Source of the DNA: Actinomycetota bacterium | GTDB lineage: Bacteria; Actinomycetota; Acidimicrobiia; Acidimicrobiales; Ilumatobacteraceae | Length of the DNA stretch: 43,870 bases | NCBI GenBank assembly: GCA_046093625.1 | Contig: JBJTFY010000160.1 | Span: 1 to 43,870 of the forward strand | Direction of reading: 5' to 3' | Part shown: piece after piece, positions 22,792 to 24,594 of the stretch | Numbering within the stretch: the first letter of the stretch is position 1 | Layout: the number at the start of each line of letters is the position of its first letter | Translations under genes and position numbers: made by a program | The notes under the pieces: model-generated | Database searches by the model: none | What the model was told of the DNA's origin: nothing | Seen by the model: only the letters and a program-made list of their open reading frames with translations

Positions 22792-22844
22792 ACCGCGAGG
22801 CTAACTGCGGGACCACGGGGCCGTCCGACCGTCGACCTGGGATG

Positions 22845-22875
22845 CCCGGCCGCAGTGGGGGGAACTGCGGCCGGG
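22845..22875. terminator. Perfect 12-bp stem hairpin downstream of the whiB7-like gene
   Basis: CCCGGCCGCAGT (22845-22856), a 7-nt loop GGGGGGA, then ACTGCGGCCGGG (22864-22875). No U-tract. Confidence 0.45.
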
Positions 22876-22942
22876 ACCTCCCGGTGCAGTCGCGGGTTCG
22901 ACTGAGCGTTGCCCGCAACCGAGATCTGGACGGTGATCGGCG

Positions 22943-23320
22943 TCACGCCACGCGGACCGCCACCTCGAAGGCCCTCTGCTCCGAAACGTCGGTGATCGTG
23001 CGAAGTGTGCGGTCCTCGTCGATCACGATGATCGGCTTGGGCAGCACCGACGGACGTCCGCGGGGGCGTCGATCGGCGATGACGCGACCGTTCTCGATGA
23101 GTTCGCCGCCCCACACCCCCCAGGGCTCCTCGCGTTCGAGGGCCCCGGCGAGACAGGTGTCGGCCAGTGAACATCGTCGGCAGATCGCCTTGGCCCGGGC
23201 GATGTCGACGTTCACGTCGCTGAAGAACAGTGGCGTCAACGTTCCGTTGCCGTCGGCACAACGCGCCGTGGGGCGGGCGAGCGGAGCGATCCGCTCGTCG
23301 ATGGTGAGGGTGCTGTTCAT
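22943..23320 (-). CDS. whiB7: WhiB7-type Fe-S transcriptional activator (WhiB-like with C-terminal AT-hook)
   Basis: Four Cys in C-Xn-C-X2-C-X5-C spacing (CADG...CRRCSLADTC). EPWGVWGGELIENGRVIADRRPRGRP closely matches the WhiB7 signature plus the RGRP AT-hook. A GGAG RBS lies 6 nt upstream. Confidence 0.85.
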   Translation of the reverse strand: MNSTLTIDERIAPLARPTARCADGNGTLTPLFFSDVNVDIARAKAICRRCSLADTCLAGALEREEPWGVWGGELIENGRVIADRRPRGRPSVLPKPIIVIDEDRTLRTITDVSEQRAFEVAVRVA

Positions 23321-23365
23321 GGTGGTCTCCGTTTCGTGTCAGGGGTTGTCGTGAAGGTGGGCCGG

Positions 23366-23401
23366 AAAATCGAAAAGGCCGCCGGGTTGATCCCAGCGGC
23401 C
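23366..23401 (-). terminator. Intrinsic terminator / attenuator in the whiB7 leader
   Basis: The minus strand reads GGCCGCUGGG AUCAA CCCGGCGGCC followed by UUUUCGAUUUU. It ends 46 nt upstream of the whiB7 ATG and starts 30 nt after the uORF stop. Confidence 0.65.
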
Positions 23402-23431
23402 TCGGTGAGGTTCTCGACGTTGGTGTGTGAC

Positions 23432-23638
23432 CTACGTGAGAGGCTCCCCGAACCGCTGGGGCGAACGCTTGGTGTCCGCCGCTGCGAAGGCCGTATTGGC
23501 CGTGTTCGGCTTGGCTGCGGACACCATGGGCCACGAATAGGTGGTGGTGCCGGCAGCCGATGCGTGGAAGCCGTGCATGGGCGCGAACGAACCACTCGAG
23601 ATCGACATCATCGGTGCGGGGTTCAGCGTGCGCTTCAT
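23432..23638 (-). CDS. Candidate upstream ORF / leader peptide of whiB7 (68 aa, Ala/Thr/Ser/Pro-rich)
   Basis: An ATG at 23638 opens MKRTLNPAPMMSISSGSFAPMHGFHASAAGTTTYSWPMVSAAKPNTANTAFAAADTKRSPQRFGEPLT. The TAG stop at 23432 lies just before the terminator. No clear SD; translation is unproven. Confidence 0.35.
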   Translation of the reverse strand: MKRTLNPAPMMSISSGSFAPMHGFHASAAGTTTYSWPMVSAAKPNTANTAFAAADTKRSPQRFGEPLT

Positions 23639-23709
23639 GACAGTTGGTGGTCCGAATCGGTTTCGAACCGTGTGTAGGAAACCACCGCGAACCGCCGATG
23701 TCAACCGAA

Positions 23710-23985
23710 TTAGCCGTTGGGGTCGGTGTCGGTGACCAGCCGTGCGGCTCGGACCCCCCACCACATCATCACCGTTCCCCCTGCTAGAAGGCCACTTCCG
23801 AGGCCGATGAGGAGTGGTTCGGGTGCCGCCGGGGCGAACCACCAGATTCCGAGGAAAGACGCGGACGCGATGCCCACGGCCCACCCGACACCTCGGCCGA
23901 GTACGGGGAACCTCCCGTCGATTCGGGGTCGACTCGACGATGGATTCGGCAACGCGCTCATGGGAGGCAAGAGAACCCCGGCCAC
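23710..23985 (-). CDS. Small hypothetical two-TM membrane protein
   Basis: Two hydrophobic helices (WAVGIASASFLGIWWF, LLIGLGSGLLAGGTVMMWW). GC3 bias is weaker than its neighbours and the stop is TAA. The alternative start at 23961 is plausible. Confidence 0.4.
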   Translation of the reverse strand: MAGVLLPPMSALPNPSSSRPRIDGRFPVLGRGVGWAVGIASASFLGIWWFAPAAPEPLLIGLGSGLLAGGTVMMWWGVRAARLVTDTDPNG

Positions 23986-24090
23986 CTTTTCTCGCAGATT
24001 TCGCGTCGGTTCCGCTCACACTTCGCCGACCGCCCCTCGTTTGGTGTTTCACGAGTCGGGTCATCGGGACCCGCCGGAAAGGACAGAACG

Positions 24091-24594
24091 ATGAACAAGC
24101 CACTGGTGTTGCTGGATGTCGACGGGGTGATCAACGACATCGAACGGGTTGGACTGGGTACCGACGCCTGGGAAACCCATGCGTTCGAGAGTCATGGGTA
24201 CACCTTGTTGGTTCCTTCGTACATGCGGGAGCTGATCCAGACCCTGTGTCGGGTGGCCGAGGTGCATTGGTGTACGACGTGGCGAAGCCGTGCCAACGAC
24301 GAGATCGCCGACTATCTGGGCATCGAACCCCTACCGGTCGTCGATGACGGGACGGTGTCCAGATACGTGGATTGGAAGGCTGCCGCTGCTCATGAACTTG
24401 CTCGACGAGCGTTGTCGGACGGACGTCGAGTCCTGTGGATCGAGGATTTCTACGGGCGGATTCCGACCGACGAGATGCCGTTCGGGGTCGAGTTCGTCGA
24501 TACGACCGAGGGCTGGGATGGTGCATTGTTGCTTCCGGAGATGCTTCCGCAATGGGTGTGGGAGCTGGCGGGTACCAGCCCCCAACCCGTCTGA
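24091..24594 (+). CDS. HAD-superfamily hydrolase-like protein
   Basis: N-terminal LLDVDGVIN (DxDxV motif I) and a small single-domain size of 167 aa. More A/T-ending codons than its neighbours. Confidence 0.55.
   Translation: MNKPLVLLDVDGVINDIERVGLGTDAWETHAFESHGYTLLVPSYMRELIQTLCRVAEVHWCTTWRSRANDEIADYLGIEPLPVVDDGTVSRYVDWKAAAAHELARRALSDGRRVLWIEDFYGRIPTDEMPFGVEFVDTTEGWDGALLLPEMLPQWVWELAGTSPQPV

Follow-up and report, generated by a model that had tools for sequence, protein, structure and literature searches.

The gene for a WhiB7-type regulator (22943-23320) in a 43,870-nucleotide stretch of DNA, contig JBJTFY010000160.1 of assembly GCA_046093625.1 (the window hereafter), is very probably controlled by a functional ribosome-dependent transcription attenuator of the whiB7 type. 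The host is a freshwater actinobacterium of the class Acidimicrobiia, phylum Actinomycetota, and all the features described here lie on the minus strand. In the leader, which extends about 350 nt from the promoter to whiB7, a 68-codon upstream open reading frame (uORF; 23432-23638) is followed by an intrinsic terminator (23375-23403), and a segment near the uORF 3' end, CCCAGCGG plus UUC (23450-23460, termed region 2), is able to pair with the 5' arm of that terminator (23403-23392) as a competing antiterminator. A first-pass annotation of the window had put forward this same logic, and it is supported by co-variation, by a structure recovered de novo with RNAalifold, by the folds of nascent RNA and by the uniform opening of the uORF frame. 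The evidence comprises the elements themselves, their conservation and co-variation, selection that keeps the frame open and the energies computed for the competing folds. For the comparison, 110 whiB7 loci were gathered at the level of the host's genus, family and order, and 18 more came from other orders and classes. The source assembly (2.17 Mb, 340 contigs) is metagenome-assembled, as are most of the records of the relatives, which are filed under Acidimicrobiia, Acidimicrobiales, Ilumatobacteraceae and Ilumatobacter and include the isolate Ilumatobacter nonamiensis YM16-303 (L069), in which the layout is the same. Pairing counts were taken from a MAFFT alignment of 72 distinct leaders.

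The terminator scan, which called 2 sites where 0.8 were expected, a margin within chance for this sequence alone, places a 12-pair stem at 23403-23375 (GAGGCCGCUGGG-AUCAA-CCCGGCGGCCUU) with a 5-nt loop and the tail TTCGATTTTC (equivalent to UUCGAUUUUC). The core of the stem, GGCCGCUGGG/CCCGGCGGCC, spans 23401-23392 and 23386-23377, and the stem leads into the U-tract UUCGAUUUUCC (23364-23374). By itself the hairpin folds with -21.3 kcal/mol, or -24.2 kcal/mol if a GAGG/CCUU extension is included. The core at 23401-23377 with its U-tract, 30 nt from the uORF stop to the GGCC and about 45 nt from the T-tract to the whiB7 ATG (23320), agrees with the terminator initially proposed. In the stem, 98.6% of the cells across the 72 leaders are paired and 6 pairs have both partners changed. 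RNAalifold recovers the stem unaided from the same alignment; in the source assembly the exact stem-loop occurs once, with no second copy. Using a finder for hairpins followed by T-tracts, a terminator of the form GAGGCCGC(C/U)GGG...CCC(G/A)GCGGCCUU was located 5' of whiB7 in most of the 110 loci. Inspection of nine loci that had been missed or mis-called showed a terminator with a bulged or imperfect 3' arm in seven; in the other two, either the contig end truncates the leader or most of it is absent.

The arrangement of uORF and terminator recurs 5' of whiB7 in approximately 100 genomes of the Ilumatobacteraceae and Acidimicrobiales. The uORF of the relatives is ATG-initiated, measures 46-92 codons and, in every locus inspected, stops 18-29 nt ahead of the terminator stem. 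In leaders from other families and classes, among them Streptomyces-type ones and a tentatively mycobacterial type, the distance from stop to terminator is 21-46 nt, and the last ~30 nt of the uORF usually hold a sequence complementary to the 5' arm. A permissive-threshold Rfam scan of 22800-24200 returned no match for the leader; the best overlapping hit, to CrfA, scored 16.6 bits where 38 are required. Several of the loci with an Ilumatobacteraceae-type whiB7 and leader (L035, L038, L043, L073, L065, L102 and L109) come from metagenome-assembled genomes titled 'Bifidobacterium breve' or 'uncultured Bifidobacterium sp.'; their WhiB7 proteins show 55-78% identity, and the taxonomic labels look wrong.

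The Ala/Thr/Ser-rich frame of 68 codons in the first-pass annotation is present as described: it encodes MKRTLNPAP...KRSPQRFGEPLT*, with 12 Ala, 8 Thr and 8 Ser among its 68 residues. Relative to the proteins of the window, the leader peptides are enriched 1.9-fold in Thr, 1.6-fold in Ser and 1.25-fold in Ala. In all 71 leaders compared, the uORF frame runs without interruption for 57 codons or more 5' of the conserved stop, whereas a stretch of 45 or more open codons is present in just 29 and 47 of the 71 in the other two frames. Within the genus, the first ATG past the promoter box shares the frame of the conserved stop in 18 of 21 leaders; the remaining three have a mis-called motif or an extra ATG within the box. 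In most family-level leaders AGGAGG or GAAAGGA precedes the uORF ATG by 6-9 nt. These figures bear directly on the possibility that the hairpin acts constitutively, or under the control of a factor, as a terminator or pause site behind an untranslated GC-rich open frame, with whiB7 controlled by its promoter only. Open frames are indeed common in these leaders, as the counts for the other two frames illustrate, the uORF of the window has no Shine-Dalgarno (SD) sequence and the locus is known here from sequence alone. Nevertheless, we regard such an arrangement as very unlikely, given a frame that is open in every leader and always ends at the same position of a hairpin loop, the SD sequences ahead of the uORF in most family members, an antiterminator that co-varies and the experimental tests of the same design in Mycobacterium and Streptomyces (PMC10727445, PMC11550727).

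In contrast to its frame, the product of the uORF bears little sign of constraint. The leader peptide has no Pfam or NCBIfam family match, and the variable sites in the N-terminal part of the uORF are distributed over codon positions 1, 2 and 3 as 104:122:116, without bias. The antiterminator segment is read as P-Q-R, P-G or T-R-H depending on the clade; CCCGGC, for instance, is translated as part of Thr-Arg-His in some clades and as Pro-Gly in others, and a co-varying base converts Gln to Gly or Asp in the leader peptide. Since the segment stands in different reading frames across clades, selection must have acted on the RNA and not on the peptide. As far as the sequences indicate, it is translation of the uORF that matters and not the sequence of its product; the mycobacterial uORFs are likewise highly variable (10.1101/2023.06.02.543512). 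The same data speak against a small-protein gene of the ordinary kind that ends in its own terminator, with whiB7 transcribed from a promoter in the 45-nt gap. In favor of such a proposal, genes are by default laid out as an open reading frame with a terminator behind it. Yet the peptide belongs to no recognized family, its substitutions fall evenly over codon positions, its sole conserved C-terminal 'motif' tracks the RNA pairing and changes reading frame between clades, a consensus promoter scan finds no promoter-like site in the 45-nt gap, and the linkage of the frame to whiB7 is retained across classes. We consider it the least probable of the explanations weighed here, to the point of being negligible. 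For annotation purposes, the 68-codon frame would be better labelled a leader peptide than a hypothetical protein.

The perfect complementarity that had been pointed out between CCCAGCGG (23460-23453) and 23399-23392 of the terminator 5' arm (CCGCUGGG) is found at exactly those positions. In GC-rich leaders, duplex energies compared with shuffled sequences are uninformative (z mostly between -1 and -3), and this test was replaced by positional and co-variation tests. Of 72 distinct leaders, 59 carry a perfect 6-mer complement of the terminator-arm core in the last 28 nt ahead of the uORF stop, against 18 of 356 control windows further upstream, in a count that does not depend on alignment. In the alignment, the antiterminator helix is 84% paired, a value that drops to 30-40% if the partner is slid by 1-3 columns. 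At its informative pair (35:109), 47 leaders have G-C and 23 have A-U, and in the remaining 2 the positions do not pair. The two strands switch together: GCCGGG/CCCGGC is seen in 34 leaders, GCUGGG/CCCAGC in 22 and GUCGGG/CCCGAC in 4, with one G-U case, 11 leaders lacking a perfect hexamer and no crossed types. Mapped on a WhiB7 tree, these paired switches arose at least four times and always in matching direction. In many family members the complement is longer, with CCCGGC-N-CCUCG facing CGAGG-CC-GCCGGG. Examination of related genomes had been suggested as a check on the antiterminator; the paired segments do co-vary, and the pairing of uORF and terminator arm is, from this comparison of relatives, beyond what chance would be expected to produce.

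Folding was another check suggested at the outset. Over a segment of 135 nt, the terminator conformer is the minimum-energy fold (-62.8 kcal/mol), and enforcing the antiterminator yields -57.5 kcal/mol. The terminator being more stable by 5.3 kcal/mol, read-through must be kinetic. In the window, transcripts truncated behind the 5' arm, or behind the loop, adopt the antiterminator, which takes the form of one long irregular helix with CCCAGCGG:CCGCUGGG stacked on the hairpin that surrounds the uORF stop codon. If a ribosome-sized mask is placed from -15 to +14 around the uORF stop, the terminator is again the minimum-energy fold. The same duality emerges from the alignments, since RNAalifold predicts the antiterminator de novo (-29.9) from 19 genus sequences cut after the 5' arm and the terminator plus stop-codon hairpin from full-length genus sequences. 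With the full set of 72 sequences, aligned by MAFFT and truncated behind the 5' arm, RNAalifold returns no structure, because one-column register shifts between clades break the alignment. In these models, the antiterminator would thus be the kinetic default, prevented by a ribosome that reaches the uORF end in time.

Directly 5' of the antiterminator strand, the minimum-energy folds include a further hairpin, a possible region 1 (GGCGGAC-ACCAAGC-GUUCGCC, 23460-23480), the loop of which holds a widely conserved AAGCG (Lys-Arg codons). Compensatory variants are found in part of the genus (GGCGAAC/GUUCGCC, GGUGAAU/GUUCACC), and the hairpin is not kept family-wide. It may act as an anti-antiterminator.

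Taken together, the elements are compatible with the following sequence of events. Transcription would begin at a WhiB7/SigA-type promoter, composed of an AT-rich patch, TTGACA and TGGTTTCCT, some 350 nt before whiB7, and the transcript would pass first through the 68-codon uORF. On emerging near the uORF 3' end, CCCAGCGG(UUC) could pair with GAGGCCGCUGGG, which is also the terminator 5' arm, and this pairing would stack on the hairpin holding the uORF stop. With no ribosome at the uORF end, be it drug-stalled, starved or absent, the antiterminator would form first and RNA polymerase would read into whiB7. A ribosome at the last codons or at the stop would instead unwind and cover the region, the 5' arm would pair with the 3' arm, and the resulting terminator would end transcription at the U-tract, 45 nt before whiB7. 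Once made, WhiB7 would boost its own promoter. If the attenuator is real, a change of CCCAGCGG to CCCUGCGG would abolish induction.

The hairpin that holds the uORF stop codon (23402-23451; -20.8 kcal/mol) appears in all minimum-energy folds and itself co-varies strongly across the family. Its 5' arm consists of the last two sense codons of the uORF, its loop opens with the UAG (23434-23432) and its 3' arm reaches the foot of the terminator. The core is found as CUGACG/CGUCAG, UCGACG/CGUCGA, GUGACG/CGUCAC, AUGACG/CGUCAU and UUCGC/GCGAA, among others, and the conserved 'LT*' or 'ST*' ending of the peptide is due to this pairing. Nine nucleotides before the stop lies an SD-like tract, GGGGAG (23444-23449). 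GGAG or GAGG occurs 6-11 nt before the stop (mode 8-9) in 61 of 72 leaders and in 9 of 288 control windows, and binding to the 16S anti-SD sequence is predicted to average about -6 kcal/mol at the tract and about -1 kcal/mol elsewhere. The tract occupies the same position in L002-L110 and L115-L126, and it recurs in the whiB7 leaders from other classes. Just before the terminator lies the CUC or CCUC with which it pairs, often GAUCACCUC(C/U), and the downstream partner is often GAUCACCUCC, which resembles the 16S rRNA 3' end. Given this pairing, the role of the tract may be structural only; on the other hand, the apical part of the hairpin varies freely and the SD-like part stays SD-like, a pattern that would allow for contact with the terminating ribosome. 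Re-initiation near the uORF stop was considered as a reason for the tract and rejected, as there is no conserved start codon there.

The co-variation of the stop-codon hairpin, its presence in every fold and the recurrence of the SD-like tract, which extends to other classes and contrasts with only 3% of control windows, make it conceivable that the switch senses the ribosome and that these two elements decide its outcome, perhaps with the terminating ribosome held through its anti-SD sequence, the 8-bp helix CCCAGCGG:CCGCUGGG being an auxiliary clamp. The standard footprint of a ribosome on the stop, which misses CCCAGCGG, would be in line with such an arrangement. Nonetheless, changes in the terminator arm are matched by changes in the antiterminator helix itself, the pairing of the tract with the downstream CUC/CCUC leaves room for an explanation by RNA structure alone and the anti-SD binding is a prediction, so that we judge this division of roles unlikely. 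A broader proposal, which we advance tentatively and would not expect to prevail, is that the SD-like tract and the stop-presenting hairpin constitute a phylum-wide whiB7 module in which the tract binds the anti-SD sequence and holds the terminating ribosome on the stop. Were that the case, the held ribosome would block the antiterminator strand until the polymerase passes the terminator, thereby setting a basal 'off' state. We found no description of such a module in the literature on whiB7 leaders consulted, although Lee, Lee & Roe 2022 possibly covers it.

Several observations weigh against the attenuator that we favor. Considered in the window alone, the complementarity is within chance, since, for the most favorable duplex that the 5' arm can form within the 200 nt upstream, z = -1.3 and 11 of 100 shuffles do equally well. 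Independent co-variation events amount to four, which is below the requirement of a sign test. At one locus, L011 (G001:C21), the terminator shows a compensated change from G-C to A-U (GGCCACUGGG/CCCAGUGGCC) and the uORF element stays CCCCAGCGG, leaving the antiterminator with one C-A mismatch. The thermodynamic preference for the terminator conformer belongs here as well, as does the interruption of the U-tract (UUUUCGAUUUU). The uORF ATG of the window species, besides being devoid of an SD sequence, sits after a small hairpin. A ribosome positioned exactly on the stop leaves CCCAGCGG about 4 nt beyond the standard footprint, and we infer its occlusion at the moment of stop-codon occupancy. 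A consensus promoter scan calls no site, TGGTTTCCT included, a result attributable to the non-canonical nature of the conserved -10-like box. Finally, the start site, the terminated short RNA, termination itself and the response to drugs or translation stress are all features that we infer from the sequence. As a separate observation on L011, this locus also presents a perfect complement, CCAGUGG, 135 nt before the stop, which could be significant or not.

The promoter elements invoked above can be followed in the relatives. The AT-rich patch CTAATTC (23707-23713) lies directly 5' of the -35 hexamer TTGACA (23699-23704), from which its TAATTC is separated by 2 nt (GG); the hexamer is kept in relatives as TTGAC or TTGCGG, and the whole as TAAWTC-NN-TTGAC/TTGCG among members of the genus. 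The first-pass annotation had delimited the leader to 23321-23709, an extent that falls just short of the AT-rich patch at its upper end (23713-23707). In a regulon search of the 2.17-Mb assembly, the strict WhiB7 promoter motif had a single occurrence, namely the whiB7 promoter itself. On the basis of published work (PMC3905903), the patch is presumed to be the AT-hook site through which WhiB7 would regulate its own expression. The -10-like box, TGGTTTCCT (23676-23684), lies 17 nt past the -35 box and is conserved in relatives with the consensus (C/A)GTG(G/A)TT(T/G)CCT, that is, an extended -10 form TGn plus TTKCCT (TTTCCT in the window) with a T where the canonical A is expected at position 2. 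It is probably an extended -10 element, and its non-canonical sequence may render the promoter WhiB7-dependent.

The region between this box and the uORF differs among the relatives. In the window and its two closest relatives only (L001, L002, L031), an insertion of ~25 nt containing an 8-bp hairpin (23649-23669) separates the -10-like box from the uORF ATG. The ATG of other genus members lies 10-13 nt past the box, close enough that the genus mRNA is perhaps almost leaderless; in other family members, the 5' untranslated region measures ~50 nt and has a clear SD sequence.

The regulated gene itself had been recognized as WhiB7-type, and its 125-residue product is assigned by its sequence to the WhiB7/WblC class (class V) of Wbl proteins. 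It contains a Wbl domain (Pfam PF02467, Whib, 7e-13) and, on translation, four Cys residues (C20, C47, C50 and C56) and GVWGG at residues 67-71, the four invariant Cys and a G(V/I)WGG turn being the hallmark of Wbl proteins (PMC6282962). The sequence EPWGVWGG is present in the window protein and in every orthologue fetched, and the EPW triplet adjoining GVWGG is the contact with SigA region 4 (PMC3905903). The AT-hook RRPRGRP (residues 83-89) aligns with that of M. tuberculosis WhiB7 (7KIF chain Z), and a C-terminal AT-hook with an RGRP core is confined to the WhiB7/WblC class (PMC6282962). That M. tuberculosis structure is also the top match among solved structures (PDB), with E 6.3e-18 over residues 4-91, AT-hook included; the next matches are to WhiB3 (5.5e-7) and to WhiB3 and WhiB1 in the range of 1e-6 to 1e-5. 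An SD sequence, GGAGA, lies at 23330-23326, ahead of the ATG at 23320. An NCBIfam search with the WhiB gene, the uORF and the adjacent small open reading frames gave no match.

Beyond the AT-hook, the WhiB7 protein continues in a tail of ~35 residues (approximately residues 90-125; 22943-23050) of the form VLPKPI.VIDEDRT.R......EVA.RVA, which is kept genus-wide and is absent from family-level and other WhiB7 orthologues. On the 3' side of the whiB7 stop, conserved non-coding hairpins occupy 22837-22910, including GGCCGCAG-UUCCCCCCA-CUGCGGCC, with a C-rich loop. The sequence of this region is conserved 3' of whiB7 among genus relatives and gives a weak, sub-threshold Rfam match to 6C RNA (24 bits; gathering score, 47).

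Attenuation of whiB7 as such has been described before (PMC10727445, bioRxiv 10.1101/2023.06.02.543512, PMC11550727, PMC4128351). Actinobacterial whiB7 genes typically carry leaders of this kind (PMC10727445), and the first-pass annotation understated how ordinary such a leader is. In the published systems, uORF translation favors the terminator and stalled translation gives the antiterminator (PMC11550727, PMC10727445). The whiB7 leaders of M. tuberculosis, M. smegmatis and M. abscessus operate likewise by uORF-mediated transcription attenuation, with an antiterminator formed by the overlapping uORF 3' part and the terminator 5' arm (PMC4128351, PMC10727445, 10.1101/2023.06.02.543512), and the mycobacterial leader is of similar length, about 350 nt (PMC4128351). 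The annotation's remarks on a distant lineage and a different leader peptide are both justified, as the host belongs to the class Acidimicrobiia and not to the Actinomycetes, and its uORF peptide has no detectable similarity to the mycobacterial one. Here the enrichment in Ala is only 1.25-fold, set against 1.9-fold for Thr and 1.6-fold for Ser, and the mycobacterial uORF has an SD sequence (PMC4128351), whereas the window genus is possibly near-leaderless.

The Streptomyces wblC leader behaves alike, since translation of its uORF leads to the terminator and blocked translation leads to the antiterminator and read-through (PMC11550727). In Streptomyces-type leaders, as judged by their protein, the terminator arm GGGCCGCGGAACCC is paired with a uORF segment UUCCGUGGGCC whose end lies 21 nt ahead of the stop; relative to the leader of the window, the Streptomyces leader uses other terminator and antiterminator sequences and has a longer open frame. 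Similarities can also be drawn with the E. coli trpL and leuL attenuators, where the place reached by the ribosome on a leader peptide decides between 2:3 and 3:4 pairings that exclude each other. In contrast to these, the uORF here is long (46-92 codons in relatives) and has no run of regulatory codons: the peptide contains no single-residue run and its Ala residues (12 of 68) are dispersed, so that the clustering of codons typical of trpL-type attenuators is not seen. Moreover, the nascent-RNA fold indicates that an untranslated leader would here give read-through, whereas in trp it terminates. The leader peptides of the erm/cat type resemble the present system in that an antibiotic-stalled ribosome on a leader open reading frame remodels the downstream RNA. 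Those, however, expose the SD sequence of a resistance gene by means of specific arrest peptides, and the target here is an intrinsic terminator preceded by an unconserved peptide.

A leader from another family, which we tentatively take to be of the mycobacterial type, presents the same spacing and a hairpin, AGGAGCUU/AAGCUCC, that encloses the stop. The Streptomyces wblC leader is reportedly the subject of the study by Lee, Lee & Roe (2022, Mol Microbiol 117:179). A full-text literature search returned no paper naming both whiB7 and Acidimicrobiia, although the comparative set of Lee 2022 possibly includes Acidimicrobiia. Hence, the mechanism is already known, and the locus reported here is the first such case found in the class Acidimicrobiia.

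If this reading is correct, the WhiB7 circuit, in which an autoregulated promoter is combined with a leader uORF, antiterminator and terminator, reaches beyond Actinomycetes such as Mycobacterium and Streptomyces and has been kept in small-genome, mostly uncultured Acidimicrobiia from freshwater, soil and marine environments. Its occurrence in this class therefore argues that the attenuator is ancient in the Actinomycetota. The approximately 100 natural variants assembled here provide co-variation support for the antiterminator model, complementing the mutational work carried out in model species, and they flag the stop-codon hairpin and the SD-like tract as two conserved sub-elements. In a similar vein, the distribution of the circuit argues for a role in the general sensing of ribosome and amino-acid stress, and not only for an adaptation to life among antibiotic producers.

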